Below, in pieces: positions 5,898 to 38,635 of a DNA stretch of 64,000 bases. The position numbers and the translations under genes are program-made. Origin of the DNA: Planctomycetota bacterium (GTDB lineage: Bacteria > Planctomycetota > B15-G4); NCBI GenBank assembly GCA_965248575.1, contig CBDFJQ010000002.1, positions 3,202,153 through 3,266,152 of the forward strand, in the 5' to 3' direction. Numbering within the stretch: the stretch's first letter is position 1; each line of letters begins with the position of its first letter. The notes beneath the pieces are model-generated. The model had not been told where the DNA came from, made no database searches, and saw nothing but the letters and a program-made list of their open reading frames with translations.

Positions 5898-6706
5898 GAG
5901 CGAGCACCCTCGCTGGCGGCCAGGCGCGCGAGAAAGTCCGGCGGCAAACCCACGGCGCTCCGCACGTCCTCATGCAGGGTGCGCCCCCGGGCGAGGGCCG
6001 GACGGAGCGGCCAGACCAGGCTGCTCTCCCAGGCTTCGACGCAACTCTGGTCGGCCTCCTTGAACTGCTCCAGCCACTGCAAGCCGAAACGTACGTGGCG
6101 AATCTCATCGGCATGCACTTCGCGCAGAACGGCCGCGGTGTCCTTGTCCCCCACCGCCTCCGCTGCCGCCGCGTAGTCCAGGGTGTGGTCCAGGTTGGCG
6201 TTCTCGAACGTCAGGCACATCGAGCAGACAAAGCGGAGCGGCGTCGAGAAGTGTTCGAGTTTGCCCCAGAAGTAGCCGCTGAGAGGGTGGTCGCCGAAGC
6301 GCACACCGTGCTCTTCCAGGCGTTCGATGTAGAGACGCGCATGCCGCTGCTCATCCCGAAGGGCGCTCAGTAGACCCTGTCGGAAGGCGCTGGGCGACTC
6401 GGGGAACGCGAGCAGCGCCCATGCGAAAAGCTCCACGGCCTGCAGCTCGTGATTGGCGAAGGCGTGCAGGATGCGCGCCCGCTGCGCCGGATCCGCCATG
6501 CCCTCCAAGGGCGGCACCTTCGTCTCGGGGCCGCTGCGGATCGCCAGGCGGGATTCCCGCCGGGGCTCGCGCGGCAAGTACTCCGGCACCCGGCCGACTG
6601 GCTCATCAACCAGACTGCGCGCAGGCGCCTCGAGCTTTGCTTCGAGTTCGGTCGAACACACGATGCGCTCGGCGACCTCACGCAGGCTGGAATCGGCACG
6701 GTCCAT
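5894..6706 (-). CDS. DUF455 family ferritin-like (di-iron type) protein
   Basis: 270 aa from the ATG at 6704-6706. Motifs AFANHELQAVELFAWALLAF, LRDEQRHARLYIERLEEHG and VHADEIRHVRFGLQWL give two E..H-type helices as in ferritin-like/DUF455 proteins. The longer 534-aa ORF in the track is an upstream extension with non-protein-like composition. Confidence 0.75.
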   Translation of the reverse strand: MDRADSSLREVAERIVCSTELEAKLEAPARSLVDEPVGRVPEYLPREPRRESRLAIRSGPETKVPPLEGMADPAQRARILHAFANHELQAVELFAWALLAFPESPSAFRQGLLSALRDEQRHARLYIERLEEHGVRFGDHPLSGYFWGKLEHFSTPLRFVCSMCLTFENANLDHTLDYAAAAEAVGDKDTAAVLREVHADEIRHVRFGLQWLEQFKEADQSCVEAWESSLVWPLRPALARGRTLHEDVRSAVGLPPDFLARLAASEGARS

Positions 6707-6784
6707 GTCGGAGAGCCTAGCAAGCTGCCAACCGTGTCTGCTTGCGACGGCTGGTACCATCGGCGCCTTTCCACGGCCGACCCC

Positions 6785-9277
6785 ATGCCTGCCTCTGCTC
6801 GCCAACACGCTTCCGCATCGCCGATGCCCAGGTCTCGGTGGAGCCGACTCTTGCTCATGGCAGGGTTGTCGCTCGCCTGCTCCGCATGTGCCGAGCAGAG
6901 CGCCCCGCTCCGGGTGGAGCGCGTCCATGACCTGGTCAGCATGCTGCCCAGCGCCGAAGCCACGGGACGCCATCCCTACACCCTCGGCCTGCGCCCTGAC
7001 ATCGACAACGAGGTCGACGATCGAGATGGCATCGTCTACATCCGCGCCGCGAACGAAGCGGCCTACACCTTTCGCGAGCTGAGCACCTCCGGTGCGGCAG
7101 AGTTGAGCTTCGGCATCGGCGTCCTGCTTGAACAAGGCGGACAGCAGACACCGAAACCCGGCCCCATCACATTCCGCATCGAGGCGATGGAAGCGGATGC
7201 AACGCACGGCGCCTTCATCACGGTCTTCGAAGAGTCCCACCCGGCGGCGTACTTCCCAGCCCCGGAGCTGCGCACCGACCACCGGCTGACGCTGCCCGAC
7301 CCGGCCTTGGACGTCCTCCAGAACGACGCCGGGGCGAAGAACAGGGACGGGCCCGAACGCCATTGGACCCTGCGCTTCTCCTCTGCCCTCACCAGCGGGG
7401 GCCAGGGCCGCCGCACCTGGCCGGGATGGTTCCAGCCCGTGCTCCGCTCCCAGGGACGCCTCGCGAGCCTGGAAGAACGTGCCGTCCCCACGCGCCACGT
7501 CGCCCTCGACCTGCTGCAGGCCTTCGACTCAGCCCAGGTGCTGCAGGAGTCCGCAGCCGCTGCCGTCCGGCGCGCGCCGCTCGATGCCGCGGAGGGCGTG
7601 AACGTCCACGGTGGCCCCCGGAATTCACTGGCGGCCACAGCTCCCTCGCGCATCGCCTGGGAGCTCGACATTCCCCGCAGCGCCACGCTGGACTTCGCCT
7701 GTGGCATGGACACCCACAGTGGCTGGATGCTCCCGGGCGATGGCATGTCCTTTGCCGTCGAGGTCAACGGCGAGCGCATCTGGTCGCGCTTCCTCAATGG
7801 CCACGAGGTCGAGCTGGAACGTGGGTGGAAGCCCGCGTCCCTCGACCTGTCGCCCTGGGCCGGTCAACGAGTGAGCCTCGAGCTCATCACCGAAACGGGA
7901 GAGGACGGCGAGCACGATGCCGGTGCCTGGGCCCATCCGCGCATCCTGGAAGCGGGGGAGACCCCGCGTCGCGCGGCAGGCGACGGGCCGAACGTGCTGC
8001 TGATCGTGATCGACACCCTGCGTGCGGACGCCCTCGGTTGCTACGGAGCGCCGGGCAACCCCACACCCCGTCTGGATGCCTTGGCTGCCCAGGGAGTGTT
8101 CTTCTCCCAGTCCCGTTCGGTGTCCTCCTTCACCTGGCCCGCGACGGGCAGCATCCTCACCGGGCTCTACCCCCATGCCCATGGCGTGGTGGGCCGCAAG
8201 CGAGCGTTCCTGGCAGATCATCTCGAGACGCTGGCCGAGCTCTTCACCGCAGACGGTTACAGCACGGGAGCCTTCGTGGCGAACCCCATCGTGGGCTCCG
8301 CCACGAACTTCCATCAGGGTTTCGAGAGCTTCGCCAACCTGCCTCAGGCCCGGGCCCGCGCACTCAACGAGCGCGTCATGCTCTGGACGGAGAATCAGCA
8401 AGGCGCGGCTGTCATGGCCTACGTGCACTACTTCGACCCGCACGACCCCTATCTGCCCCCCGCTGAGTTCCGGCCGGAGCTGGAGATCGATGCCGTCAGC
8501 ACCGCGCTCGACGACGTCTCCATCCGCCACCTCACGGCACTCAAGGGCGACGACGTCGACGCCAGCTGGGACGCCGAGAAGGTCGATCTCTTCGGCCGCT
8601 CCGTCCGACTCGACGAATTGCTCTACGAGGCTGAGGTGCGCTACACCGACGCTGCCATCGGCGAACTCATCGACGCTTGGCAAGCCGCAGGGCTGCTGGA
8701 CGACGCCTTGGTGGTCGTCACCGCCGACCACGGTGAGGAGTTCTACGAGCACGGCCGTCCCTATCACGGCACCCACCTCTGGGAGGAGAGCATCCGCGTG
8801 CCGCTCTGGGTGACGGGCTTCGGCAAGAGCGCCTTTCCCGGGCGCCGCGTCGACACACCGACCAGCGTCGTGGACATCCTGCCCACCCTGCTCGAAGCCC
8901 TCGGCCTCGAGGCGCCGCCCTACGACCTGCCCGGCAGGTCGCTGCTGGACTCCTTCAGCACGGAGCCCTCCTTTGCGCACACCGCCTCTGGGCTGGAGCT
9001 GGGCTTCGAGGGTGCCCTCGATCGGCTCTGCGCCACGCTCCCTCCATGGAAGCTGATCTGGACGCCGGGAGCCGAGCTCGCTCAGCTGTACAAGCTCGAC
9101 GAGGACCCGCGAGAGGCCGTCGATGTCGCCGCGCAGCATCCCGACGTCGTGGCGCGCCTCAAGGGGGCCATCGACGCCTGGTTGGAAGCGTCCATCCGCG
9201 CCGCACCCGAACACGACGGAGCCGTGGGCCAGGAGATGCAAAGCTGGCTCGAGGCGCTGGGCTACACCGGGCGCTAG
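6785..9277 (+). CDS. sulfatase-like lipoprotein, paralog of 2301..4763 (same N-terminal domain, Thr at the nucleophile position)
   Basis: Collinear similarity to 2301..4763 runs along the whole length: LRVERVHDL, DNEVDDRDGI, WPGWFQPVLRS, GDGMSFAVEVNG, LDLSPWAGQRVSLELITETGED, NVLLIVIDTLRADALGCYG, SSFTWPATGSILTGLYPHAHGV, TADHGEEFYEHGRPYHG. Signal peptide is RLLLMAGLSLACSAC. The start is the ATG at 6785 or at 6824. The upstream part of ORF 6449.. overlaps the DUF455 gene and is not coding. Confidence 0.85.
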   Translation: MPASARQHASASPMPRSRWSRLLLMAGLSLACSACAEQSAPLRVERVHDLVSMLPSAEATGRHPYTLGLRPDIDNEVDDRDGIVYIRAANEAAYTFRELSTSGAAELSFGIGVLLEQGGQQTPKPGPITFRIEAMEADATHGAFITVFEESHPAAYFPAPELRTDHRLTLPDPALDVLQNDAGAKNRDGPERHWTLRFSSALTSGGQGRRTWPGWFQPVLRSQGRLASLEERAVPTRHVALDLLQAFDSAQVLQESAAAAVRRAPLDAAEGVNVHGGPRNSLAATAPSRIAWELDIPRSATLDFACGMDTHSGWMLPGDGMSFAVEVNGERIWSRFLNGHEVELERGWKPASLDLSPWAGQRVSLELITETGEDGEHDAGAWAHPRILEAGETPRRAAGDGPNVLLIVIDTLRADALGCYGAPGNPTPRLDALAAQGVFFSQSRSVSSFTWPATGSILTGLYPHAHGVVGRKRAFLADHLETLAELFTADGYSTGAFVANPIVGSATNFHQGFESFANLPQARARALNERVMLWTENQQGAAVMAYVHYFDPHDPYLPPAEFRPELEIDAVSTALDDVSIRHLTALKGDDVDASWDAEKVDLFGRSVRLDELLYEAEVRYTDAAIGELIDAWQAAGLLDDALVVVTADHGEEFYEHGRPYHGTHLWEESIRVPLWVTGFGKSAFPGRRVDTPTSVVDILPTLLEALGLEAPPYDLPGRSLLDSFSTEPSFAHTASGLELGFEGALDRLCATLPPWKLIWTPGAELAQLYKLDEDPREAVDVAAQHPDVVARLKGAIDAWLEASIRAAPEHDGAVGQEMQSWLEALGYTGR

Positions 9278-16207: not shown

Positions 16208-16948
16208 CTAGCCGAGGAACTCGCTCTTCGCGACTGCAGCCTCACTCTCAGAGAGCTCGGCCGACTCAAGGCCCCCTACGCAAAGAGAAGCTCGGAAGTT
16301 CGCCGTCAGCGCATCCGCGAGTTCGCCCCACTCCACCCGCCTGCCCGCAGCCAACTCCACTGAGCCCACATCCGGAGACAGCGACGGAACGGAGAGGGGG
16401 ATGGAACCATGGTGCAAGACGCGGCCCCCTGCGCGGCGCTGTGCCGAGCCCACGACCTTCCTGCCCGACGAGTCCACGAGATCCAAGGCCGTGTGGTCGT
16501 CAAAGCACATGGAGGCCTTGCGCGGGTGAACAGAGAGAGGAGCCTCGCCACCGCGAAAGTCCAGTTTGGCACCCAGCCCCGAGAGCGCGTTTCGCACCAC
16601 CGCGTGCACGCACTCGTAGCCGGCAACGGTTTCGGCGGGGTAGCCGTCTCGACCAGGTGTTGCCACGAGGCAGAACGTCAGCTCGTCGGCGTGGTGGATG
16701 GCACCGCCGCCCGTCTGTCGACGGACGATCTCCACCTGGGCTTCGGCAGCCCGCTGCTCGAATGCCTCCCGGGGCTGGAAGTAGCCCAGGGACAGCGCGG
16801 CTGGGAGCCAGCCATAGAGGCGTAACGCAGGACGCTCCTCCGGAGACCGGAGGAGCGCCTCGTCACACGACAGGTTGTAGCGAGGGCGACCGAAGCCGCT
16901 TCGAAGCAACCTCCATGTCCGCGCCGGCTGCTTGCCTGAGGCGGACAC
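16208..16948 (-). CDS. lipoate-protein ligase / octanoyltransferase family protein (BPL_LplA_LipB domain)
   Basis: Motifs: CDEALL, LRLYGWLPAALSLGYFQ, IVRRQTGGGAIHHADELTFCLV, KVVGSAQRRAGGRVLHHGSIPL. The start is uncertain. GTG at 16948 was chosen because the longer ORF overlaps the upstream gene. Confidence 0.75.
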   Translation of the reverse strand: MSASGKQPARTWRLLRSGFGRPRYNLSCDEALLRSPEERPALRLYGWLPAALSLGYFQPREAFEQRAAEAQVEIVRRQTGGGAIHHADELTFCLVATPGRDGYPAETVAGYECVHAVVRNALSGLGAKLDFRGGEAPLSVHPRKASMCFDDHTALDLVDSSGRKVVGSAQRRAGGRVLHHGSIPLSVPSLSPDVGSVELAAGRRVEWGELADALTANFRASLCVGGLESAELSESEAAVAKSEFLG

Positions 16949-19030: not shown

Positions 19031-19768
19031 GTGGCTGACTTTCCGAAAGACCTACTCTTGGCCGTTGATGGCCCCGGCGGCGACCCCGCCCTCCGCTGCC
19101 TCTCGCTCCTTCACGGTGCAGCGGTGATCGGGCGTTTTGATGCCGTCCAGGCCCTCGCAGCCCACGCTTTGACCCTGGGCCTGCCCACCGCCAAGCTGGC
19201 CGCTGCAGGCCTGCAGGTCGCACCCTATGGCGGCTTCCCGAGAGCTATCGAGACCCTGAGCCTGATTGCGGAGGCTCAACGGGCATCTGGCCCCGCAAGC
19301 ACCGATTCGGGCTCGAATCCGGGCAGGATCCGGCCAAACGCCCCCCAGGAGGAGGCGCTGCAGAGCCAGGCAACCCCCTCCGCTGATTCCTCCTTGGATC
19401 GCCTGCGAGTCGCCGGGCTGGAGGTCTTCCGCATGGTCTATGGCGACAACACCGAGGCCGTCCTGGAGCAGCTCGCCACGCTGCATGCCGATCTCCCAAG
19501 CCACGTCCTGGAAGCCGCCTACGGCAAGGTTTTGTCCCAGCCAGGCCTGAGCTTGGGCGAAAGGGAACTGCTCGCCGTCAGCGCCCTGGCGCTGGCCGCC
19601 CTGCCCGCGCCACTCGGTTCCCACATTCGAGGTGCTCTCCGCAACGGTTTCACGAGCGCCGCCGTAGAGGATATTCTTCACGCCTCTACGTCCCTGGCCG
19701 ACAAGAGCGCTCTCCCCGTCATCGATCAAGCGCTCGATCGGCTCTCCCGGAAGGTCTACCGACCATGA
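19031..19768 (+). CDS. carboxymuconolactone decarboxylase (AhpD-like) family protein
   Basis: The C-terminal half (GLSLGERELLAVSALALAALPAPLGSHIRGALRNGFTSAAVEDILH) fits the CMD-family pattern. The start is uncertain (GTG at 19031). The stop overlaps the next gene's start in an ATGA at 19765-19768. Confidence 0.6.
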   Translation: MADFPKDLLLAVDGPGGDPALRCLSLLHGAAVIGRFDAVQALAAHALTLGLPTAKLAAAGLQVAPYGGFPRAIETLSLIAEAQRASGPASTDSGSNPGRIRPNAPQEEALQSQATPSADSSLDRLRVAGLEVFRMVYGDNTEAVLEQLATLHADLPSHVLEAAYGKVLSQPGLSLGERELLAVSALALAALPAPLGSHIRGALRNGFTSAAVEDILHASTSLADKSALPVIDQALDRLSRKVYRP

Positions 19769-22700
19769 CTCTGACTCCGTCCCCGTCCACCGGAGCCTCG
19801 TCAACCGAACCGACCGGCGGCACGGCCCTTCCGGCCCTGCTCGTCAGTCTCGTCGCGCTGATTCTCTACCTGCCGACACTCGGCCACGAGCTGGTCTACG
19901 ACGACTGGTTCCTCATCGACCCCGGGCAGAACGCCTCCATGCAGGGGGTGAATGACGACTTCGGCGTCGCCCTCAACCTGTTCACGGAAGAATACTGGGA
20001 AGGAGTGAACCCCTCTGGGGTGGAGGAGCTGAAGAACAGGGGACAGGCCCTCTACCGCCCCCTGACCACCTTCATTTGGGGCACGCTCTCCTTCCTGTTC
20101 AAGTACGAGAACGCCACCCAGGCGGTGCCCTACCACCTGGCCAACTTGCTGGCGAACGTCTGGGTCGTGTACTTGCTGTTCCAAGTCATCGTGCGTCTGT
20201 TCGGCTCCGTGCGCTTGGCCGTGCTGGGGTCACTGCTGTTCGCCTTGCATCCGCTGCACAGTGAAGCCGTGGCCTATGTGGCCGGGCTGTCCGATCTCAT
20301 CTCGACGGTCGCTGTCTTGCTCGGGCTGCTGTTCTGGCTACGCGCCACCGACAATCCCGCCAAGCTGAAGCTCGGCCCCTACGTGGGCCTGCTGGCGACC
20401 ATGTTCATCGGCCTGCTCGGCAAGGAAGGCGCCGTGCTGGTGCTCGCCGTGGTCGGACTCACGGATGTGATGCTCACCCTCCGAGGGCGGGTCACCTCCA
20501 TGAGCCAGCGGATCGCCACCTACGGCGGCATGCTGGCGGTGATGGCTGCGAACATCGCGCTTCGCTTCGCGGTGATCGGCTACATCAAGCCCAGTTCCAA
20601 CGCCATCGGCACGCTCGACAACGTGCTGATCAATGTGGACACGGGCGTGCGTGTCGCCAATGCCTTCAAGCTCCTCGCCAAATACGTGTGGCTGGTGCTC
20701 TGGCCCAAGGACCTGTCTGTTGACTACTCCAAGAGCGTCATCGACGTCTCGCCGGGCTGGGCGTCACCAGGCCCCTTGGCGGGCATCATCCTCATCACGG
20801 TGATGGTCTTGCTCGGCTTGGCGAAGCTGCGCAGTTCGCCGGCCTTCGGCTGGGGCCTGTTGTTCTTCGTGGGCTGCGCCACCTTCGTCTCCAACATGTT
20901 CGTTCCCATCGGAACGGTCATGGCGGAACGTCTGATGTACCTGCCAAGCATCGGCCTCTGCCTGGCGGCGGCCACAATCCTGAACCGCCTGCTCGCCCCC
21001 AGCGAGACAGCCAGCGGCGCCAAGGCCGGTGCCGGAGGGGGCCTCAACCCGGTGGGTCTCCTGCTGTGCGTCCTGATCCTCGGTGGAGCCGGCATGCGCA
21101 CCTATTCGCGCAACGCCGACTTCCACGATCCGATCACGCTCTTCGAGGCGGCCGAGCAGGTCGTGCCGGAGAGTGCTCGTGTGCACTTCCAGCTCGGCAC
21201 GCTGTACTACAACTTGGGGCGCTTCAACGCGGCGGTCACACAACTCGAGACCTCGCTCCAGTACGACCCCAACTTCGTGCGCGCAGCCATTCAGCTGGGA
21301 GACGTCCACTCGGGCGACCAGAACTGGGAGCGGGCCATCGAGACCTACGGCCTGATCCTCAAGAGCGTCGACGGCGTCGACGCCGATCCGGGCGACCTGG
21401 CAGCCTTGCAGGACATGGTGCTCACCAAGCGAGCGGAAGCCCATCGCCGTTCCGGCAACCTGGAAGCCGCACTGGCGGACGTGCAACGCGCAGTGGGTCT
21501 CAGCTCTGCGGGCTCCGTGGCCGATCGCCAGCTCGTGAGCATGTTGCAGGGCCAGCAGCGGTGGGAGGACTCCATTCCCGTCATTCGCAACGCCCTCGCC
21601 CTGGCACCGGACGATTCGCAAATGCTGTTCGACCTGTGTCGTGCTGCAGCCAACACCGGCGACCAGGAGCTCTACAACGACTCCCTTGCCCAGCTGAAGG
21701 AAACCCCGGACGGACGCGCCCTGGGCCTGGTGATGGAGGCGGTCACGCTGTATGCCCAGGCCTTGACCAACAAGAACGAGGCTCTCCGCGCCAAGGCCAT
21801 GGACAAGTTCGAGCAGGCCATCGAGCTGGACGACAGCATGGCCACGCCCTACGCCTTCCGCGGTCGCTACATGGCCGAACGGTCCCAGTTCCTGCACGAC
21901 GCCGTCACCGAGTACGACCGCGCCCTGGAGCGTGACCCGCTGCACCACATGGCGCTCGGCCTGAAGGCCACGGCCCTCACGCAGCTGGGCGAGTTCGAGG
22001 CAGCCCTCGACACCCTGGCCATTCTCGAGACGGTGAACCCCAACCCCGACCTGCTCATCCTGAAGGCGGAGGCGTATTTCGGCTTGGGTGAGCTGCAGGA
22101 GCTGGAAGAGATTCGCGATCAACTTCGGGAGCTCGGGCGCGACCCCATCGAGCTCCTGTTGAACACCGCCATCACCTACGACGCGCAGGGCGACACCGAG
22201 CGCGCCCTGGACCTCATCAACCAGGCTTTCGTGGATCCCGAGGCAGCGCAGAATCCAGAAGTCTGGCGCCACCTTGGCGTGCTCAGCCTCAACGCCAAGA
22301 AGTTTGAAGAGGCGCTGGCTGCTTTCGTTCAGCAAGAAGCCACCACGCTCACGAACATCGAACTCCAGGGCCCCTTCCCCTACATCCCGCTCAACAAGGC
22401 CAAGAGTTTCCTGGGCCTTCAGCGCGATGTGGAAGCGGCTGCGGAGCTGGAGAGGGCTGAGGCGATCCTCCAGGGCCTGGACCAACAGGGTCCGCTCTGG
22501 CGGCTCCTGAGGGCCGACATCCTGCTCACGCGTGCCGACCTCTTCATGGCTCCTGGCAGCTTGCTGTTCGACGCCGAGCAGGCTGAGCTGTTGTGCCAGG
22601 AAGGGATGGAGCACACCAACAACCAATACCCGCCGTTCCATGACCGCTCCATCGAAGCCTTGCTCCGGGCGGACAACACGGCGGAGGCCCTCGCAAGAGC

Positions 22701-22881
22701 GACCGCAGCTCAGGAGCGCTTCTTCAAGCTGGATCGCTTCCCGGTCGTCGTCGAAGCCTTGGAACTCGCCGCGGCAGGTGACAAGGCTGGCGCCATCGCA
22801 CGCCTGAAGCAGGGCGAGGACGAGGAGCAGACGGACCGCACGGACGCCCTGGCCCGACTGGCTGATGTGCTCGGGGGGTAG
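19765..22881 (+). CDS. multi-pass membrane GT-C-type glycosyltransferase-like domain fused to a long TPR-repeat domain (TMTC/PMT-like architecture)
   Basis: 1038 aa. The N-terminal ~430 aa contain about 10 hydrophobic helices, with an early acidic-loop motif LVYDDWFLID. The C-terminal ~600 aa are TPR-like helical repeats (FQLGTLYYNLGRFNAAVTQLETSLQYDPNF and similar). Confidence 0.75.
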   Translation: MTLTPSPSTGASSTEPTGGTALPALLVSLVALILYLPTLGHELVYDDWFLIDPGQNASMQGVNDDFGVALNLFTEEYWEGVNPSGVEELKNRGQALYRPLTTFIWGTLSFLFKYENATQAVPYHLANLLANVWVVYLLFQVIVRLFGSVRLAVLGSLLFALHPLHSEAVAYVAGLSDLISTVAVLLGLLFWLRATDNPAKLKLGPYVGLLATMFIGLLGKEGAVLVLAVVGLTDVMLTLRGRVTSMSQRIATYGGMLAVMAANIALRFAVIGYIKPSSNAIGTLDNVLINVDTGVRVANAFKLLAKYVWLVLWPKDLSVDYSKSVIDVSPGWASPGPLAGIILITVMVLLGLAKLRSSPAFGWGLLFFVGCATFVSNMFVPIGTVMAERLMYLPSIGLCLAAATILNRLLAPSETASGAKAGAGGGLNPVGLLLCVLILGGAGMRTYSRNADFHDPITLFEAAEQVVPESARVHFQLGTLYYNLGRFNAAVTQLETSLQYDPNFVRAAIQLGDVHSGDQNWERAIETYGLILKSVDGVDADPGDLAALQDMVLTKRAEAHRRSGNLEAALADVQRAVGLSSAGSVADRQLVSMLQGQQRWEDSIPVIRNALALAPDDSQMLFDLCRAAANTGDQELYNDSLAQLKETPDGRALGLVMEAVTLYAQALTNKNEALRAKAMDKFEQAIELDDSMATPYAFRGRYMAERSQFLHDAVTEYDRALERDPLHHMALGLKATALTQLGEFEAALDTLAILETVNPNPDLLILKAEAYFGLGELQELEEIRDQLRELGRDPIELLLNTAITYDAQGDTERALDLINQAFVDPEAAQNPEVWRHLGVLSLNAKKFEEALAAFVQQEATTLTNIELQGPFPYIPLNKAKSFLGLQRDVEAAAELERAEAILQGLDQQGPLWRLLRADILLTRADLFMAPGSLLFDAEQAELLCQEGMEHTNNQYPPFHDRSIEALLRADNTAEALARATAAQERFFKLDRFPVVVEALELAAAGDKAGAIARLKQGEDEEQTDRTDALARLADVLGG

Positions 22882-23130
22882 GCGGGCAGAGCGAACGCAG
22901 GCTTGCTGGATGTAGACCTGCCCTCATCGGTGGACTTCTTGCGAGAAGCGTCCGGCTCGTAGGTACTCGGGATTCACACGAAACCGCGAGTCCGTGGAAT
23001 CAGCCTTGCCGGTGTGACGAGTACGATCCGCCTTGTGGGAGTCTTGCGCTTCGTGGGCACGAAGGCGCGTCGGGCTGATGAAACCTCCCAATCCCCCGCC
23101 GACTCACGAGTCAGCGGTCTCCAGCGATGA

Positions 23131-23235
23131 GTGGGAGGCAGATTTTCGGGACGCAGATCTGAGGCGAGTTTTCGAGGCGTCTGTTTGCCTCGCTGTCTGA
23201 GCAGCAGATCTAAGTCCCGAAAATCTGCCTCTCAC
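23131..23235 (+). repeat. 105-nt palindromic intergenic element, copy A (31-nt arm / 43-nt conserved core / 31-nt arm)
   Basis: Left arm is GTGGGAGGCAGATTTTCGGGACGCAGATCTG. Core is AGGCGAGTTTTCGAGGCGTCTGTTTGCCTCGCTGTCTGAGCAG. The distal 22 nt of the arms pair with a single G:T and the core-proximal 7 nt pair perfectly, with a 2-nt internal mismatch between them. The core contains a 6-bp hairpin, CGAGGC/GCCTCG. It lies between the convergent gene ends at 22881 and 23253. Confidence 0.85.
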
Positions 23236-23252
23236 GGCATACGCCCTGCAGC

Positions 23253-23774
23253 CTAGCTGCCCTCGGAATCGGGGGCCGTGATCTCCACGATCACGTCGCC
23301 CTGCTCCACCGTGGTACCCGTCTCGCCGTGGATGGCTCCGACCACCCCATCCAGCTCGGCTTTGACCTCGTTCTCCATCTTCATGGCTTCGAGGATGAAG
23401 AGCACCTGGCCGGCGGTCACCTCGTCGCCAGGGCGGACACGCATCTCGCGCAGGATGCCGGTCATGACGGCTCGAACGGACGCATCACCGCCCTCGTTTT
23501 CCTCACGGATGGAGCGCGCGAGGAATTCCCGCTCGCCCAGCACCTCGGTCGCGTAACGACTGCCGCCGATGAGCAGGTCGAGGCGGTCGCCATTCTCTTC
23601 GGCACCGATGTCCACCGAACGGCCATTCATCACGAGCGAATAGGCACGGCCATCCACGAGCGTTGCCACATCGATGTGCCGGGAGTCGTCGGTGATGGTG
23701 GCTCGCACCCCGGCGCCGTCGGCTTGCACGTCCACTTCATAGTGCTCGCCTGCCACCAGCACGTGGTACTTCAT
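23253..23774 (-). CDS. biotin carboxyl carrier (biotinyl-domain) subunit of an acyl-CoA carboxylase
   Basis: The C-terminal biotinyl domain carries the EAMKMENEV motif (LFILEAMKMENEVKAELDGVV). Its start at 23772-23774 overlaps the accC stop in an ATGA. Confidence 0.85.
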   Translation of the reverse strand: MKYHVLVAGEHYEVDVQADGAGVRATITDDSRHIDVATLVDGRAYSLVMNGRSVDIGAEENGDRLDLLIGGSRYATEVLGEREFLARSIREENEGGDASVRAVMTGILREMRVRPGDEVTAGQVLFILEAMKMENEVKAELDGVVGAIHGETGTTVEQGDVIVEITAPDSEGS

Positions 23775-25327
23775 GAGCCTGCTCCCGGACGGAAGGAATC
23801 CACCCAACGGGTCCCTGCCGACACAGGGCCGGCCGCCCCCGCAGCTTCATTCGCGTTGCCTGCATTTCCAGCGCGTGCCGCAAAACCGCGGCGGCCGCGC
23901 AGCAGGTGGGCCATGGTGGCCGCCAAGAAGGCGATGTCCAGCTGACGGCGCTCGCTGGTGCGCGGGGCGAATTGCTTCGGATCGGACTCGACCGTGCTCG
24001 TGTCGTACTGCCCGCTGCCGAAGGCCTTGCTAGCGATCACCCGCCTCAAGAACGGCAGATTCGTCGTGACACCGGCCACCGTGGTTTCCGTGAGGGCGCG
24101 CGCCATGCGTTGGATCGCCGCTTCGCGATCCGCTGCGTGGACCGAGATCTTGGCCAGCATGGGGTCGTAGTGCAGCCCCACCTCCATGCCTTCGAAGAGG
24201 CCGGTATCGACCCGCACGCCCGGTCCGCCGGGCATCTCCAAACGGTGCACACGCCCAGTCGCTGGCAGGAAGCCGTTGTCGGCATCCTCCGCATACAGCC
24301 GACACTCGATGGCATGCCCGCGATGGACGATCTCGTCCTGCGCCATGGGCAACGGTTCGCCACGCGCCACCATGATCTGCCAGCGCACCAGATCGATGTC
24401 GGAAGTCAGTTCGGTGATCGGGTGCTCCACCTGGAGCCGCGTGTTCATCTCGAGCACGTAGAAGTTCTTGTGCTTGTCCACGAGGAACTCGAGGGTGCCT
24501 GCGTTCTCGTAGTTGATGGCCTTTGCGGCGCGCACGGCGGCCTGACCCATCTGCTCACGAAGCTCGTCGTCCAGGATGGGCGACGGCCGCTCTTCCACCA
24601 CCTTCTGGTGGCGCCGCTGGATGGAGCACTCGCGCTCACCGATGTGCACGACGTTGCCGTGACTGTCACCGAAGATCTGTACTTCGACGTGGCGCGGTTG
24701 CTCGAGGTACTTCTCGATGTAGACGGTGCCGTCGCCGAAAGCGTTCTGCGCTTCACTGCGCGCACGATTCGCTGCCGCGAGAAGCTCCTTCTCATCGTGC
24801 ACGATGCGGATGCCCTTGCCGCCGCCGCCCGCGCTGGCCTTGATCATCACCGGGTAGCCGATGCGCCCGGCCTCGGCCAGGAGGGTCTCGTCGTCCTCGA
24901 CAGGGTCCGCCGTCCCAGGAACCACGGGCACTCCTGCCTCGATCAAGCGCCGGCGGGCCTGGATCTTGTCGCCCATCGCCTCCATGGCGTCGCCGGAAGG
25001 GCCGATGAAGACGATGCCCGCCTGCTCGCAGTCCCGGGTGAAGCCGGCGTTCTCCGACAGGAAACCGAAGCCCGGGTGGATGGCGTCCGCACCCGTCTCG
25101 AGGGCTGCCTTCAGGATCAGGTCCCCCCGCAGGTAGCTCTCGGAGCTGGCCGCCGGCCCCAGCCGCACGGCCTGGTAGGCGGCCCGAACGTGCAGGGCAT
25201 TCCTGTCCGGGTCCGAATAGACGGCCACGGTCTTGATACCCATTTCGCGGCACGTGCGCATGACGCGCAGTGCAATCTCGCCGCGATTGGCCACGAGGAT
25301 CTTCTCGATCTTGCGTGCAGCAGCCAT
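23771..25327 (-). CDS. accC: biotin carboxylase subunit of acetyl/propionyl-CoA carboxylase
   Basis: Begins MAAARKIEKILVANRGEIALRVMRTCREMGIKTVAVYSD. Other motifs are PVMIKASAGGGGKGIRIV, HVEVQIFGD, ECSIQRRHQKVVEE and LEMNTRLQVEHPITE. It carries a ~70-aa C-terminal extension. Confidence 0.95.
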   Translation of the reverse strand: MAAARKIEKILVANRGEIALRVMRTCREMGIKTVAVYSDPDRNALHVRAAYQAVRLGPAASSESYLRGDLILKAALETGADAIHPGFGFLSENAGFTRDCEQAGIVFIGPSGDAMEAMGDKIQARRRLIEAGVPVVPGTADPVEDDETLLAEAGRIGYPVMIKASAGGGGKGIRIVHDEKELLAAANRARSEAQNAFGDGTVYIEKYLEQPRHVEVQIFGDSHGNVVHIGERECSIQRRHQKVVEERPSPILDDELREQMGQAAVRAAKAINYENAGTLEFLVDKHKNFYVLEMNTRLQVEHPITELTSDIDLVRWQIMVARGEPLPMAQDEIVHRGHAIECRLYAEDADNGFLPATGRVHRLEMPGGPGVRVDTGLFEGMEVGLHYDPMLAKISVHAADREAAIQRMARALTETTVAGVTTNLPFLRRVIASKAFGSGQYDTSTVESDPKQFAPRTSERRQLDIAFLAATMAHLLRGRRGFAARAGNAGNANEAAGAAGPVSAGTRWVDSFRPGAGS

Positions 25328-30895: not shown

Positions 30896-32713
30896 GTGAA
30901 CCCTTGGACAGAATCCGTCTGCGCCCAGCGCGCGCGGCCCGCAGCACACCCACGGCTCTGGCTGGGCCTCTTGAGCGCCCTCGCCCTACTCGGCGCCTGC
31001 GCCCCGGCGGAAGCAGCGCCCCCCCTGCCAGAACCGGCATCGCCAATCACCAACTGGAGCGAGCTGGAACCCAAGAGTTCCCGAGTGAGCACGGTCGTCA
31101 TCTTCCCAACCCACGCTCAGCTGACTCGCACGCTTCAGGTCGAAGCCCAGGCCGGTGAGAATCGGCTGCTCTTCGGCGGTCTCGTACCAAACCTCGATCC
31201 CCAAACCTTGCGAGCCAGCGTGAGCGAGGGCGCCCGGGTCACCGGAACGGAGATCAAGACACTCCACTTGGAACAGTCGAGCACCGAACAGATCGCAGAC
31301 CTCGATCAGGCCATCCAGGATCTCGAGGACACTCTCACGGAGCGCGCCATGCAAGAAACGCGCGTCCAAGAACGCGCCGCTTTCTATCGCTCCGTGAAGG
31401 GCCGCCTTGCCAGCGACATGGAAGCCCAGTTCGTCGGCGGCAGCATTCCCGTGACCAGCTGGAGCGAGGTCCTGGGGTTCGTGGGCGACGGCCTCGCTGG
31501 GTGTGACAAGGAACTCGTCGAGATCGGACTTGAGCGGCGCTCCCTGCTCGGCCGACGGGACGCAGCCAGAGCGGAGCGCCAGGGCTACGCAGGGCTCGAA
31601 GCTCACACGGAGAAGCAGGTGGCCGTCACCTTCCAGGCCGAACAAGCGGGGCCCATGACCGTGAACGTGCACTACATGGTGTCGGACGTCATCTGGAAGC
31701 CCAGCTACGACGTGCACCTGGATCGCGCCACGGGCGCACTCGAAATCATCGGCTACGGACACATCAAGCAGTGGACAGGTGAGTCCTGGACGGATGTCGA
31801 TCTCTCGTTGGCGATGAGCCGACCGGATCACCAACTCGCACTGCCAGCCCTCACGCCCCTCGTCGCCAGTCTCGATCAGACCGCGCTCAGGAAGCTCGCC
31901 AAGGAGGCCTCCTTCCTCGGCCTCTCGAAGGGCCAGGCCGCCCAAAAATGGGCGGCCGGCCGGTTCGCCGGACGCCAGGACCGGGAGACCTTCCGACGCA
32001 ATCTCGAACAACTCGCGCGCTTGCCTCGGGATCGAATGACGGCCTTGGGCCTCAGCCCGGAGATTCTCGAGGAAGCCCTGTCTCACCTCATCAACCGCTT
32101 CTCTGGTGTTCGCTACCAGATTGCGCAGCGCGCCACGATTCCCTTCGACAGCTCGCCCCACAAGGTCGTGACCTTCGCGGCCCGTGTCCCTGCTCAGCTG
32201 CGCTACGTCGCCACACCCGCCCTCGGCGACACGGTCATGCTTCAGGCAGTGGCCACCAACTCCACGGGACACCCGATGCTGGCAGGCACGGCAGCGCTCT
32301 ATGTGGATGGCGCCTACGCGGGAGCCTCCGAACTCGGCGGCGCAGCACAGAACGAAGGCATCTCCTTCAGCTTCGGCCCCGACGACGCGCTGGTGGTGAA
32401 ACGCCGGCTGATCTCCCGAAGCGTCAAAGGCCCCGAAGCCTTCAGGCAATCACAGGTCCTGACGTACCACTACGCCATCACCGTCGAAAACTTCAACGAC
32501 CGGGACGTCGAAGTCCACGTCGTCGATCAGATCCCCATCAGCAAGACCGCCGAGATCCAGGTGAGCTTCCTGAACTCCACAGAACCCCACACCCTCTACC
32601 CAGAAACCGGCGCCCTCATCTGGAACCTCTCCATGCCCGCCGGCAAACGAACCGAAGTCGACTACTCGTTCAGCGTGGAATGCCCCATAGGCCAAGACGT
32701 CCACTGGCAATGA
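30896..32713 (+). CDS. DUF4140/DUF4139 domain protein (mucoidy-inhibitor MuiA-like family)
   Basis: 605 aa with a GTG start and a signal peptide. The N-terminus (VVIFPTHAQLTRTLQVEAQAGENRLLFGGLVPNLDPQTLRASV) is followed by a coiled coil, then a C-terminal part with YDVHLD and AHVVDQIPIS-type motifs. This is the architecture I recall for that family. Confidence 0.7.
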   Translation: MNPWTESVCAQRARPAAHPRLWLGLLSALALLGACAPAEAAPPLPEPASPITNWSELEPKSSRVSTVVIFPTHAQLTRTLQVEAQAGENRLLFGGLVPNLDPQTLRASVSEGARVTGTEIKTLHLEQSSTEQIADLDQAIQDLEDTLTERAMQETRVQERAAFYRSVKGRLASDMEAQFVGGSIPVTSWSEVLGFVGDGLAGCDKELVEIGLERRSLLGRRDAARAERQGYAGLEAHTEKQVAVTFQAEQAGPMTVNVHYMVSDVIWKPSYDVHLDRATGALEIIGYGHIKQWTGESWTDVDLSLAMSRPDHQLALPALTPLVASLDQTALRKLAKEASFLGLSKGQAAQKWAAGRFAGRQDRETFRRNLEQLARLPRDRMTALGLSPEILEEALSHLINRFSGVRYQIAQRATIPFDSSPHKVVTFAARVPAQLRYVATPALGDTVMLQAVATNSTGHPMLAGTAALYVDGAYAGASELGGAAQNEGISFSFGPDDALVVKRRLISRSVKGPEAFRQSQVLTYHYAITVENFNDRDVEVHVVDQIPISKTAEIQVSFLNSTEPHTLYPETGALIWNLSMPAGKRTEVDYSFSVECPIGQDVHWQ

Positions 32714-32754
32714 CCCTCACTGCTCGCCGACCGGCGGGGTAGGTCCACCGAGGA

Positions 32755-32859
32755 GGGGAGCCCTGAGGGCCGGGCACCTGGTCTGAAGCGAGTTTTGGAG
32801 GCATCAGCTCGCCTCCTTGTCTGAGCAGCAGACCAGGTGCCCGGCCCTCAGGGCTCCCC
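32755..32859 (+). repeat. 105-nt palindromic intergenic element, copy B (perfect 31-bp stem)
   Basis: Left arm is GGGGAGCCCTGAGGGCCGGGCACCTGGTCTG. Core is AAGCGAGTTTTGGAGGCATCAGCTCGCCTCCTTGTCTGAGCAG. The right arm is the exact reverse complement of the left. The core hairpin GGAGGC/GCCTCC carries a compensatory C-G to G-C change relative to copies A and C. It lies between the convergent gene ends at 32713 and 32868. Confidence 0.9.
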
Positions 32860-32867
32860 GGCCGCGT

Positions 32868-33092
32868 CTACCCCTGCCGATACTGCTCGCCAATGCCATC
32901 CACGAAGAACTCCACGCGCCCACACTCCGGGCAGACATAGACGTCAAACTTCTCGCGGTTGGTGAACAGCTCACCCAGTTCACCCAATGCGCCCCAACGC
33001 GTGCCTTCGTGAAACTTCTTGGTGCCCACGAAATCGAGAGCGCGCTCGCAACGGGGGCAACGCAGGGGGCTGTCGGGGTCTGGGCTCACCAT
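32868..33092 (-). CDS. small zinc-ribbon protein (74 aa)
   Basis: Sequence is MVSPDPDSPLRCPRCERALDFVGTKKFHEG...DVYVCPECGRVEFF, with two CxxC pairs. The longer 129-aa ORF includes an unlikely N-terminal extension. Confidence 0.55.
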   Translation of the reverse strand: MVSPDPDSPLRCPRCERALDFVGTKKFHEGTRWGALGELGELFTNREKFDVYVCPECGRVEFFVDGIGEQYRQG

Positions 33093-33150
33093 GGCTTCAT
33101 GTCCTTCGGGTCTTCGACTCTCGTCATCTTGCGCGAACTGGCCTGATCCG

Positions 33151-33567
33151 TCAGTGCGCGTCTTGGGCCTGGACCAGCTCCACGAGCACGCCGCCGGTGG
33201 ATGCCGGATGGACGAAGGCCACTGTCGTCCCGTGCGCACCTGACCGGGGTTTTTCATCGATCAGGCGTACGCCTGCCTCACGCATGCGCTCCAGCATATC
33301 GGCAATGTCGTCCACTTCGAAAGCGACGTGGTGCAGGCCCGGGCCGCGCTTCGCCAGGAACTTGCCCACGGGGTTCTCGCCCTCGTCGGGCTGCAGCAGC
33401 TCCACCGCCCCGGAACCGGCACCGAGGCGCAGCATGGCGACGGAGACACCATCGCTCGCCACGTGCTCGATGTGCTCCACGGGCAAGCCGAGCAGATCAC
33501 GCCAGAATTCCAGCACGGCTTCGTGAGCAGGGACCGCAACGCCGAAGTGGGACAGACGAGTCGCCAT
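33151..33567 (-). CDS. mce: methylmalonyl-CoA epimerase (VOC/glyoxalase fold)
   Basis: Motifs: LSHFGVAV, VAMLRLGAGSGAVELLQP, PVGKFLAKRGPGLHHVAFEVDDI, VAFVHPASTGGVLVELVQ. It lies 9 nt downstream of the mutase gene. Confidence 0.85.
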   Translation of the reverse strand: MATRLSHFGVAVPAHEAVLEFWRDLLGLPVEHIEHVASDGVSVAMLRLGAGSGAVELLQPDEGENPVGKFLAKRGPGLHHVAFEVDDIADMLERMREAGVRLIDEKPRSGAHGTTVAFVHPASTGGVLVELVQAQDAH

Positions 33568-36373: not shown

Positions 36374-36398
36374 CTCGCGGCCGCTAGACTACATTCAT

Positions 36399-36437
36399 GG
36401 AACCGGTTGGTTGTGTCCGACCGGGTCCGTTTTTTTT
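36399..36437 (+). terminator. intrinsic-terminator-like hairpin followed by a T8 tract
   Basis: GGAACCGGT (36399-36407) pairs with ACCGGGTCC (36420-36428), giving 8 of 9 pairs around a 12-nt loop. One G follows, then TTTTTTTT at 36430-36437. A T8 run is very unusual in this GC-rich window. Confidence 0.45.
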
Positions 36438-36546
36438 AGCAGGCTTCAGGTTTTTCAGGCCCTTATCACACGCCCCCGAAGGCGCCGATAAGACGCATGA
36501 GGAACAGCACCCCCGAGCGTCCCCGCCCCGAGGAGCCCAGCCCCAC

Positions 36547-38199
36547 GTGCTAGCCCCCCTCGCAGGTTTTCTTTCTGTGTTCGTTTGCGCCTCTGCTTGC
36601 GTCGTTGGCCAAGCAGCGCGCGCGCTTCCCAAAGCACAGAACGCACATGCACAACACGCCTCCCGGGCGCCCGTTCGCAGCGACCTCCAGAAAGAGGTCC
36701 GGCTGAACAGCGACCCGAACAATCCGGAGGCGCCCTACGGCATGGTGCTCATTCCGGCAGGCGACGTGATCATGGGCACCGACCCGGACCTGGTCCCCAA
36801 GCTGGGCCAGAACTTCCAGGCGCAGATGACTGAGATCGCTGCGGAAACGCCGCGCCACACGCGCGAGGTCGACCAGTTCTTCATCGACGCCAACGAGGTC
36901 ACGAACCTGCAGTGGAAGGTCTACCTGGACGCCACCGGCCGCGAACCATCTTCGGTGCTCGTCACCAACGGCTGGCCCAACAGCAAGATCCCTGATGGAC
37001 AGGACTACTTCCCCATCACATTGGTGAGCCTGCCCGAGATCGAGGAGTTCCTGGCCTGGGCCGGCAAGCGCTTGCCGACCGAAGCCGAGTGGACCCGGGC
37101 AGCACGTGGCGACGACAGCCGCAGCTACCCCTGGGGCGACAAGTGGAACTCCAAGGTCGTGAGCTATGGCGGCCGTTCACCCGCGCTGCCTGTGAGCGTC
37201 GACGAGTTCGAGAAGGGCGCGAGCCCCTTCGGCGTCGTCAACATGGCGGGCAACGTCTGGGAATGGGTAGACACCAACTACACCCCCTTCAAGGGTTTCG
37301 AGCCGATCCCGTTCAAGCTGAGCAAGCGCGAGGTCGTGCCGCTGACGCCTGAGTTCGACTCTCGTCGCTACGTCATCAAGGGCGGCTGCTACGTCTCCAC
37401 CCGCGACATGTCGCGCATCGACTACCGCGTCAGCGTCGACCCCAATGACGCGGACGCCGGCCTCGGTTTCCGGACGGCACGCTCCGTGCACGCCGGCGCC
37501 GAAATCATCCGCAGTAGCTACCGCCGCCTGCTCCCCTCCGCCATCACCGGCGAGGACATGCTGGACAAGACCGACATCTTCGCCCAGGAGCGCGCCTCCT
37601 ACCTCGAGGGCAGCGACGGCCGTATCATTTCCGGCTTCCGCTACCTCGGCTTCGCCCACCCCAAGCCGCTTCGCCAAGCGGGCCTCTCACGCATACGCAA
37701 GTCCTCCAAGGACGAGCCGGTGACCCTGGGCCTGCTCACCACGAGCGAGCCCCTAGCTGAGCCACCGCTCCCGCCCGGTGACTACGTCGTCGCCTTCAAG
37801 GGGCGCGGCGAATCCAAGAAGCACAAGGAAGCACGGCGCAACAGGAGCAAGGACAAGAAGAAGGACGACGACGCGGAAGCCCCCCCCGCACCGCCCGCTC
37901 CCAATGGGGATAGCGGCAGTCTAGCTCCCTGGCCCTTCGCCGTGGACGACGTCGTCGAGGACATCGAGTTCGACCAGGACATGGATGTCTTCCTCTTCTA
38001 CAACGTCAACAACGCCGTGGTCGGCTGGACCCTCGCCGGTGAAATCACCGAATCCGCCTTCGCACCCGTGACGCACGAGGTGGATGCCGAGGGCAAGAAG
38101 TGGGACATCGCTTTCAGCCTCGACGTGGTCAGCAAGCGCGTCCCGCGCTTTACGCTTCCCATCAAGGTCGCGGGTCCTGGGCTCGGCACTCCTGACTGA
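36547..38199 (+). CDS. formylglycine-generating enzyme (SUMF1/FGE-sulfatase) domain protein with a ~220-aa C-terminal extension
   Basis: Motifs: MVLIPAGDVIMG, PRHTREVDQFFIDANEVTNLQW, LPTEAEWTRAARG, YPWGD, GVVNMAGNVWEWV, IKGGCYVS, GFRTARS. The start is uncertain. GTG at 36547 gives the signal-like VLAPLAGFLSVFVCASAC. The ATG at 36397 would include the hairpin/T8 region and AT-rich codons. Confidence 0.8.
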   Translation: MLAPLAGFLSVFVCASACVVGQAARALPKAQNAHAQHASRAPVRSDLQKEVRLNSDPNNPEAPYGMVLIPAGDVIMGTDPDLVPKLGQNFQAQMTEIAAETPRHTREVDQFFIDANEVTNLQWKVYLDATGREPSSVLVTNGWPNSKIPDGQDYFPITLVSLPEIEEFLAWAGKRLPTEAEWTRAARGDDSRSYPWGDKWNSKVVSYGGRSPALPVSVDEFEKGASPFGVVNMAGNVWEWVDTNYTPFKGFEPIPFKLSKREVVPLTPEFDSRRYVIKGGCYVSTRDMSRIDYRVSVDPNDADAGLGFRTARSVHAGAEIIRSSYRRLLPSAITGEDMLDKTDIFAQERASYLEGSDGRIISGFRYLGFAHPKPLRQAGLSRIRKSSKDEPVTLGLLTTSEPLAEPPLPPGDYVVAFKGRGESKKHKEARRNRSKDKKKDDDAEAPPAPPAPNGDSGSLAPWPFAVDDVVEDIEFDQDMDVFLFYNVNNAVVGWTLAGEITESAFAPVTHEVDAEGKKWDIAFSLDVVSKRVPRFTLPIKVAGPGLGTPD

Positions 38200-38213
38200 G
38201 CTCGGCTGAGGGC

Positions 38214-38318
38214 CGGGTCGTCCAGTTGAGGGACACTTGGCCTGCAGCTCAGACAACGAGGCGAACTGACGCCTCGAAAACTCGCCTCAGACCAAGTGTC
38301 CCTCAACAGGACGCCCCT
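38214..38318 (-). repeat. 105-nt palindromic intergenic element, copy C (core in inverted orientation relative to A and B)
   Basis: The reverse complement reads AGGGGCGTCCTGTTGAGGGACACTTGGTCTG / AGGCGAGTTTTCGAGGCGTCAGTTCGCCTCGTTGTCTGAGCTG / CAGGCCAAGTGTCCCTCAACTGGACGACCCG. The arms pair over about 26-30 bp with a few mismatches, one of which is G:U only on the minus strand. The element starts 15 nt after the stop at 38199. The 12-mer CTGAGGGCCGGG from copy B's arm recurs at 38206-38217. Confidence 0.85.
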
Positions 38319-38635
38319 CCTCGGTGGACAGGCGGCACCCGGGTCGAGACGCGAGCTTGCGTGCTCGCTCTTGGGGTAAGTGGGCGATGGCGCGACCTTC
38401 GACGGTCGTGACGCTAGGCGTCAAAGACATGTGAGGCGTCGAGACAAGCGAAGCACGACTCGTATTTCGCGCTCGATCCCACACAGCCGTTGGACCGCGA
38501 GCAGGAACGGAAGCCCACCGGTCGCGCCCGTCCCGACAGCATCCTTGATCTCTTGCCGGGTATCACCCCAGCAGGCCGGCGGGCGCGAGCGCTAGCATGG
38601 CGTGCTCCGCTAGCCGCTGAGCGGCCGATCCGTAG

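Follow-up and report, generated by a model that had tools for sequence, protein, structure and literature searches.

We report a family of intergenic hairpin repeats, three copies of which (A, B and C) lie in a 64,000-nt stretch of a Planctomycetota genome (GenBank assembly GCA_965248575.1, contig CBDFJQ010000002.1, positions 3,202,153 to 3,266,152; hereafter the window) and the others on metagenome contigs. The family is real and statistically solid, and it has no match in Rfam or in the sequence collections searched. We consider it rather probable that these are lineage-restricted, non-autonomous repeats of ~121 nt, which have spread to unrelated intergenic sites and are recognised as a folded single strand. 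The family was previously undescribed, and we found no planctomycete family of such hairpin repeats in the literature; the kind is already known, namely the REPIN/ERIC/BIME class of intergenic hairpin repeats. The distinctive properties of this family are its conserved apex, its 5' tail, its polarity towards stop codons and the mirrored indels in its arms.

Architecture of the repeat

A degenerate pattern of the core, with up to three mismatches allowed, matched exactly three times in the window, compared to 0.02 matches expected, and a repeat finder recovered at each place an inverted pair of 30/31 nt with 43 nt between its halves. The three copies that had been pointed out in an earlier, sequence-only reading of the window are therefore confirmed. 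Each consists of a 43-nt core between two arms, at 23131-23235 (plus strand) for copy A, 32755-32859 (plus) for B and 38215-38317 (minus) for C. The 31/43/31-nt plan ascribed to all three holds for A and B, whereas C has 30-nt arms and the span given for it took in one unpaired base on each side. Core identity is 81% between A and B, which agrees with the ~80% proposed for all pairs, and is higher for A-C (91%) and B-C (86%). The arms of A and B are the same at 16/31 positions on the left and 14/31 on the right, not at 17 as had been counted. Among the three copies the arms are 45-71% alike between copies and 90-100% complementary within a copy. As described before, the arms of B are complementary at 31/31 positions, and in A the pairing is interrupted by one G:T and one 2-nt mismatch.

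Alignment of the copies together with their flanks showed that homology runs past the 105-nt palindrome on both sides. The palindrome stands, and the extent of the element is revised to ~121 nt. The full unit is asymmetric, with a 12-nt 5' tail (consensus CTCCACCGAGGA), an arm, the core, the second arm and GGCA or GGCC; flanks further out are unrelated between copies. Within the core there is a 6-bp apical hairpin with an 8-nt loop, which reads CGAGGC/GCCTCG in A and C and GGAGGC/GCCTCC in B. The conserved parts are this apical hairpin, the two strands of an internal loop (AGGCGAGTTTT and TTGTCTGAGCAG), the top of the stem (GGTCTG/CAGACC), its base (GGG/CCC), the tail and the GGCA. The copies in the window are as follows.

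23119..23239, plus strand: copy A, full unit (covariance model 131 bits)
23119-23130, plus strand: tail of copy A, CTCCAGCGATGA
23131-23161, 23162-23204, 23205-23235 and 23236-23239, plus strand: left arm, core (with apical hairpin CGAGGC/GCCTCG), right arm and GGCA of copy A
32743..32863, plus strand: copy B, full unit (covariance model 140 bits)
32743-32754, plus strand: tail of copy B, GTCCACCGAGGA
32755-32785, 32786-32828, 32829-32859 and 32860-32863, plus strand: left arm, core (with the compensated apical variant GGAGGC/GCCTCC), right arm and GGCC of copy B
38211..38329, minus strand: copy C, full unit (covariance model 120 bits)
38318-38329, minus strand: tail of copy C (reverse complement of these positions)
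38288-38317, 38245-38287, 38215-38244 and 38211-38214, minus strand: left arm (30 nt), core, right arm (30 nt) and GGCC of copy C
22878..22935, minus strand: A', a probable internally deleted copy (weak: 14.7 bits, window-wide E 0.51, together with alignment)

A scan of the window with filters off gave no full copies beyond A, B and C, and added only the weak remnant at 22878-22935. The remnant retains a tail (GTCCACCGATGA), an outer stem (GGGCAG...CTGCCC) and GCC, and has the middle 87 model positions swapped for 22 nt. It stands head-to-head with copy A across a 183-nt spacer, and its 3' end overlaps the TAG stop of a TPR gene (19765-22881, plus strand). We tentatively take it as a fourth copy.

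Distribution of the family

An 18-base core pattern picked up 12 true copies in JGI metagenomes, on 10 contigs of samples Ga0055584 and Ga0316202. One more copy is on an ENA contig, L062, which is 95.5% identical to contig L026 and begins exactly at the element tail. The total comes to 15 copies and one orthologous copy (L062), in the window and on 11 metagenome contigs, with unrelated housekeeping genes as their neighbours. A covariance model (R1) built on the 10 full copies re-aligned all 15 copies and found none further. Contig ends cut 5 of the 12 copies from the metagenome scan, which fits a repeat that breaks assemblies.

Outside these contigs the element was absent. A scan of 185,579 representative genomes with the pattern GCGAGTTTT-N21-TGTCTGAGC returned no true copy and eight matches, all of them non-palindromic chance ones in unrelated phyla. 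The IMG/VR viral contigs gave no true copy and four chance matches, and BLAST searches of plasmids and phages gave no matches to the element. In ~113 kb from relatives (L009-L011 and L054-L061; 74-85% protein identity), neither nhmmer nor the covariance model found a copy; at the density of the window the chance of such a result is about 0.005 by our own calculation. At the relatives' counterparts of sites B and C, the flanking genes are 23 nt apart or overlapping and there is no element. Dispersal beside unrelated genes, absence from relatives, assembly breaks and the presence of subfamilies together show that the repeat is spreading or did so in the past.

The window also has extra genes at sites B and C, so that neither provides a precise empty site. 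In L010, the 73-aa gene and an M28 peptidase gene are 23 nt apart, and the DUF4139/DUF4140 gene (30896-32713) beside copy B is absent from the syntenic loci of the relatives. At site C, ~1.5-1.7 kb (38200-39892) is absent from the relatives, in which valS overlaps the FGE-sulfatase gene or is separated from it by 143 nt. This segment contains copy C and an open reading frame (ORF) of lower third-position G+C content (38636-39691, plus strand) with a lipoprotein-signal-like N-terminus and no Pfam match. A second end of a larger mobile unit was sought around the extra genes by B and C, and no shared motif was found.

The window has 66% G+C and carries ordinary chromosomal genes (among them sulfatases, biotin carboxylase, methylmalonyl-CoA mutase, valS and uvrD-like genes) and none of mobile elements. 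For its methylmalonyl-CoA mutase, no other recorded sequence exceeds 84% identity, and the matches that bear names are metagenome-assembled genomes of Planctomycetota. The SulP protein of the L026 contig has Engelhardtia mirabilis and strain Pla163 among its named relatives, and from the relatives of this protein the element-bearing organisms are placed near Engelhardtia and the 'Saltatorellus' clade. The SulP of the L026 organism is 80% identical to protein P0130, which is apparently of the window genome. The core of copy A is 1 nt from the metagenome consensus. Near-identical cores across lineages with ~80% identical proteins imply either strong constraint, like that on REP sequences maintained by their RAYT, or transfer between lineages.

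Some further observations concern individual contigs. Between L026 and L062 the element differs at two arm positions, both belonging to one base pair, and the ~45 nt just 3' of GGCA (L026 1970-2020 against L062 120-175) are almost unalignable despite the overall identity of the two contigs. Three copies (L014 2329-2376, L046 94-139 and L043 about 2289-2320) share an extra module of ~40 nt 3' of GGCA (GGCACGACGCCACTGG...GATCTGTGGCGCAGNCNCCT). This module has a small hairpin of its own, CGCCAC/GTGGCG, and points to a mosaic organisation. A salactin-family protein is encoded on one related contig.

Folding, covariation and strand asymmetry

Segments of 125 nt around the three copies each form a single long hairpin, interrupted by an internal loop and capped by an apical hairpin of 6-7 bp. 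The free energies of copies A, B and C are -71 to -101 kcal/mol (z -8.2 to -10.5), and 0 of 200 shuffles were as good; with DNA parameters the values are -34 to -53 kcal/mol. Across the 15 copies, standard pairs occupy 98.2% of the pair cells, compared to 82% in column shuffles and 38-47% when the partner was slid by 1-3 columns, and both sides have changed in 23 of the 37 pairs, compared to 11 and 3-9, respectively. None of 500 shuffles reached any of the observed values. The alignment was fitted to the structure and flatters these figures, with which a raw arm-against-arm comparison nevertheless agrees (Watson-Crick pairs at 286 of 310 positions). The apical hairpin, already recognised in the earlier reading, covaries too, with GGAGGC/GCCTCC (copy B), CGAGAC/GTCTCG (L042) and CGAAGC/GCTTCG (L032) as independent compensated variants.

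The mean identity between copies is 92% in the core and 66-68% in the arms. Pairwise arm identity ranges from 45 to 87%; at the termini just GGG is invariant, and an internal CCTG is conserved as well. The hairpin is kept and the arm sequence is not; judging from the aligned copies, the middle of the stem would need only to pair. The arm mismatches are unevenly distributed between the strands. On the strand where the core reads AGGCGAG..., there are 14 G:T and 2 A:C, the latter being G:T if read on the other strand (p=0.004), and the strand preference proposed from the one wobble of copy A has become stronger with more copies. The sense strand gains 3-16 kcal/mol in fold stability over the antisense strand in every copy, and positions that bear G:U also show both G:C and A:U. 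Because of these three observations, we conclude that the constrained species is one single strand, RNA or DNA.

The sequence-only reading had taken the compensatory changes as a sign of selection on the hairpin itself. This is upheld insofar as the structure is kept across the family; compensatory change alone, however, is no proof of selection on each copy. Non-wobble arm mismatches in the metagenome copies correspond to a decay of ~0.8% per site, and unique core changes are at a similar low level by a rough hand estimate in which recurrent variable positions and compensated pairs were set aside. By this rough comparison, the individual copies look young and G:T looks like a tolerated pair. 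Even where cores are identical, copies differ at 13-42% of their arm positions, and their pairing is still near perfect. In addition, both arms measure 30 nt in C, L035 and L026b, that is, mirrored 1-nt deletions from at least two events, the gap positions being taken from the structure-fitted alignment. Double changes of the transversion type (GC<->CG, UA<->CG) are abundant. The mirrored deletions and the GC<->CG swaps are equally compatible with replicating master copies and with the templating of one arm on the other.

If one arm were copied from the other, by fold-back synthesis or by quasi-palindrome template switching, complementarity would follow from the copying itself, and the G:T excess would come from G.T mispairing by the polymerase or from a strand bias of mutation. 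In E. coli, the 'perfecting' of quasi-palindromes through template switches is well established as a mutational mechanism. The mirrored deletions, the double changes without a wobble intermediate, the near-perfect pairing of copies whose cores are identical and an arm decay as low as our rough estimate of random core decay would all be accounted for in this way. We nevertheless regard arm copying as improbable: the occurrence of G:C and A:U at the G:U positions is the signature of stepwise compensation, the 6-bp apical hairpin covaries although it is too short for efficient fold-back priming, the gap positions depend on the alignment, and to our knowledge no enzyme or intermediate has been described for such copying in bacterial repeats.

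A related long shot is that every copying of the element remakes one of its arms from the other. A single-stranded intermediate consisting of the tail, one arm and the core would fold back, and the second arm would be made on the first. Such regeneration would explain why the arms are near-neutral yet complementary, and also the mirrored deletions, the GC<->CG swaps, the one-strand G:T excess through polymerase G.T mispairs, and the one-sided tail.

Within the element, the CGAGG of the tail repeats the 5' half of the apical hairpin, and its pairing with the 3' half is possible. In L042, the tail and both halves of the apical hairpin have changed together, a single event with a chance probability of roughly 0.03 (own estimate). 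The GGCA is complementary to UGCC of the apex. Two other ideas were rejected. Insertion of the core into pre-existing local hairpins does not agree with the arms, which share no more with their own flanks than with others (longest shared word 6.7 nt in their own flanks and 7.1 nt in those of other copies). A hammerhead-like reading of CUGAGGCGAG was dropped because, by eye, both GAAA and a three-way junction are missing. Other strong intergenic hairpin clusters of the window, at 1232-1376 and 16725-16870 (-78 to -84 kcal/mol, z about -4), are unrelated to the element in sequence and may be ordinary transcript-end structures.

Position and polarity relative to genes

All copies are intergenic, and many of them are between convergent genes. 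Of the 13 assessable copies, 12 have their 3' end (GGCA) at a distance of 4-79 nt from an opposite-strand gene's stop codon (p=0.003), and most of the abutting genes in this count are backed by a Pfam domain or by conservation in relatives. The tail side is more varied. The end of a co-directional gene is 30-555 nt away in six of the nine informative cases, a divergent gene start is found beside C and L042, and other copies face a head-to-head partner across a spacer of 272 nt (L026) or 357 nt (L031); the spacers of the head-to-head pairs have no conserved sequence and no ORF. Copies A, B and C are 5.4-9.6 kb apart and in both orientations. The genes next to them are listed here.

23253-23807, minus strand: biotin-lipoyl gene, stop codon 13 nt past the GGCA of copy A
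30896-32713, plus strand: DUF4139 gene, stop 29 nt ahead of the tail of copy B
32868-33257, minus strand: conserved 73-aa gene, stop 4 nt past copy B
36397-38199, plus strand: FGE-sulfatase gene, TGA stop 11 nt from the GGCC of copy C

It had been noted that the copies sit just past stop codons, where terminators occur. The position is true, and a polarity that had gone unnoticed is added to it. There is little to favour a terminator. In an intrinsic (Rho-independent) terminator a GC-rich hairpin runs straight into a U-tract, whereas here GGCA... comes after the hairpin on the sense strand and TCCTCGGTGGAG on the antisense strand; the copies have no U-tract, sigma-70-like promoter or terminator-like site (a pattern scan counted 0 terminator-like sites at the three window loci). 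Because the 3' end faces the stop of a gene read from the opposite strand, the better-folding strand is antisense to that gene's mRNA.

These positions are relevant to the possibility that the element is a cis-acting RNA selected in place, as a protective or terminating hairpin at 3' ends, a site for RNase III or an insulator where genes converge, with its spread being incidental. The location of the copies after stop codons and, for many, between convergent genes fits such a function, and G:U wobbles on one strand, with GC, GU and AU at the same positions, are classical for RNA compensatory evolution. The co-directional genes upstream of the tail could supply a sense transcript. REP-type repeats concentrate after ORFs and between convergent genes as well and are thought to act as RNA (PMC3733652). 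However, every copy lacks a U-tract and, by the pattern scan, any site resembling a terminator or promoter, the wobble-pair strand is antisense to the mRNA whose stop adjoins, and C, L042 and the head-to-head pairs in L026 and L031 are without a co-directional upstream gene. The same gene ends in the relatives do without the element. Moreover, a structural role alone would leave a 43-nt core of ~92% conservation, unpaired strands included, unexplained. We therefore regard selection in place as an unlikely explanation, though a serious one. An RNA role in place may coexist with mobility, and it is possible that copies lying 4-79 nt after stops have been co-opted as transcript-end or insulator hairpins.

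Comparison with known elements

Rfam 15 gave no matches over the whole window at gathering score. In E-value mode, just generic long-hairpin models (miRNA precursors and DUF3800-IV) appeared, with 7-48 bits compared to gathering scores of 39-137 and on both strands. A multicopy family of small-RNA genes, with its own transcription signals and with variable arms processed to guide-like duplexes, is hardly credible as an explanation. The long, stable, strand-specific structure with a single-stranded 5' segment would suit such genes, and the sub-threshold resemblances that point to small RNAs are solely to miRNA-precursor hairpins; these matches are 20-90 bits under the gathering scores and on both strands. 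Against such genes, conservation starts just 12 nt before the stem, with no conserved or consensus promoter, and the arms are homologous variants of one consensus rather than unique, spacer-like sequences.

The closest likeness is to REPINs, which are known to have long hairpins with compensatory changes and an excised form with a 5' tail, and for which an IS608-like mechanism has been proposed (PMC3116915). To call our element unclassified, as in the first reading, is therefore an overstatement. Both are intergenic repeats of ~100-120 nt that form one long hairpin as single-stranded DNA or RNA with compensatory stem changes, and both have a single-stranded 5' tail, no target-site duplication, a lineage-restricted distribution and higher-order arrangements of copies (PMC3116915; PMC3733652). 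In our family, the compensatory changes extend to the 23 two-sided pairs of 37 and the tail is 12 nt. REP/BIME sequences are defined as imperfect palindromes of 20-40 nt that bear at one end an unpaired tag, GTAG or CGTC (PMC3733652). The present unit is ~121 nt with the tail consensus given above, and CGTC, which copy B lacks, is confined to the apical loop, where most copies have it. Furthermore, REPINs conserve their terminal REP palindromes and vary in the centre, whereas here the apex is conserved (core 92%) and the stem varies (arms 66-68%), and by inspection no self-complementary motif recurs in the arms. There is no GTAG/CGTC tag. REPINs are mobilised by a RAYT (TnpA-REP, a Y1 HUH transposase), whose cognate single-copy gene usually has the repeats beside it; here no RAYT gene is linked in the window or on the element-bearing contigs.

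ERIC (IRU) sequences are imperfect palindromes of ~127 bp with a conserved central inverted repeat; they are extragenic and transcribed, with a proposed role in mRNA stability. They occur in Enterobacteria and Vibrio, and their consensus is conserved along its whole length and does not covary. The likeness to our element is by description, with no sequence similarity, and the absence of the core from representative genomes, enterobacteria included, argues against ERIC identity. BIME-1 (RIP) of E. coli has inverted palindromic units around a conserved L motif that binds integration host factor, and occurs after gene ends and between convergent genes. Our element resembles it in having inverted arms around a conserved central motif and in its position after gene ends. 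In BIME-1, however, the arms are conserved REP sequences and the centre is a duplex protein-binding site, not a hairpin; there is again no sequence similarity.

As had been stated before, the element does not have the architecture of attC, CRISPR or retrons. It is like attC in that the latter is recombined as a folded single strand and keeps its structure while its sequence varies. In contrast to the element, attC conserves the base of its stem (R''/R'), varies at the apex and occurs in cassette arrays beside intI. The base of the stem here is GGG/CCC rather than RYYYAAC / GTTRRRY, the copies are solitary or head-to-head, and there is no integrase in the window. Copies 5.4-9.6 kb apart in both orientations are not regularly spaced direct repeats, as those of CRISPR are, and no reverse transcriptase gene, such as retrons have, was present in the window or on the element-bearing contigs.

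A classical miniature transposable element with inverted repeats (MITE) would be a deletion derivative of an insertion sequence (IS) with a DDE transposase, and the arms would be the terminal inverted repeats bound by that enzyme. Its size (about 105-121 nt), inverted-repeat arms, intergenic dispersal and contig-breaking would fit, and IS5/IS1182-like transposase fragments, recognised by eye, adjoin the L014 copy. These are frameshifted DDE transposase-like fragments on the tail side at L014 1652-2206, with motifs WLPEDHLPFFV..LDLS and VAVDGSRMKANAS. We nonetheless hold this origin to be very improbable, because inspection of the flanks found no target-site duplication (no direct repeat) at any of the 10 full copies, with the boundary set either at the arms or at tail/GGCA. 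In addition, the termini are unconserved beyond GGG and the internal CCTG, with arms 45-87% identical; the asymmetric 5' tail does not fit; and no parent IS sharing the arms was found in searches of genomes, metagenomes, viruses, plasmids and phages.

Proposed mode of spread

Stems that are free in sequence and strict in structure, one constrained strand, and the lack of target-site duplications and conserved termini suggest that the element is recognised as a folded single strand, and disfavour a DDE-type MITE. We infer that it moves through a single-stranded intermediate. The closest mechanistic model would be HUH single-strand transposition of the REPIN/RAYT or IS200/IS605 type, in which the hairpin is recognised on one strand, the target site is not duplicated and a segment 5' of the hairpin foot is conserved. 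The conserved parts of the element would then be likely contact or cleavage determinants for an enzyme acting in trans. IS200/IS605 and PATE elements are recognised strand-specifically at hairpins, with a guide segment 5' of the hairpin foot, and have neither functional terminal inverted repeats nor target-site duplications. By analogy, the 12-nt tail of our element sits where IS200/IS605 carry the guide segment. These elements, however, have two different short subterminal hairpins, not one 30-bp stem that closes the whole element, and their orientation follows the direction of replication, which was not seen here.

Several results weigh against a REPIN-like mobile hairpin. By Pfam, there is no gene for an HUH/Y1 enzyme, RAYT, integrase, reverse transcriptase or other transposase in the window or on the element-bearing contigs; the PF01797-type search covered 40 window proteins and 10 contig proteins, none of which matched. 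No presence/absence polymorphism was found between close strains, and both members of the orthologous pair L026a/L062 carry the element. Since the arms are not REP-like palindromes and the tag is lacking, the element falls outside REPINs as strictly defined. The polarity towards stop codons (12/13) is not predicted by a replication-fork-dependent HUH mechanism, and copies of both orientations occur within 15 kb. Finally, the arms differ in every copy, unlike those of a recent burst from one master.

Other features of the window

The valS gene (about 39896-42602, minus strand) is split in two frames at 41244-41263. In tblastn, residues 1-453 of the valyl-tRNA synthetase of a relative matched in frame -3 and residues 447-902 in frame -1, so that either this essential gene is frameshifted or the assembly contains an indel. 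Paralogous sulfatase genes at 2196-4763 and 6449-9277, 4541 nt apart and about 70-75% identical in nucleotides (families D2, D3, D10 and D11), are a pair typical of planctomycete sulfatase expansion. The segment 54289-55139 is coding and has 9-nt periodic repeats (GAG/CTC-rich, with CAG/GCG runs), probably encoding an acidic low-complexity segment on the minus strand.

Significance of the family

A well-defined family of hairpin repeats is hereby added for a poorly studied and mostly uncultured planctomycete lineage, from which none of this type had been recorded. The element breaks short-read assemblies, and its covariance model can be used to mask or to census copies. With its clean covariation and one constrained strand, the family is a good test case for repeats of the REP/REPIN/ERIC type, for which it has long been asked whether the hairpin is kept for its own propagation as single-stranded DNA or for an RNA function in the host. 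Concrete, testable oddities of the family are its strict polarity towards stop codons and its mirrored indels. If the regeneration of one arm from the other were true, the element would be a self-templating hairpin replicator polarised to the 3' ends of genes, a mode of propagation undescribed for bacterial repeats.

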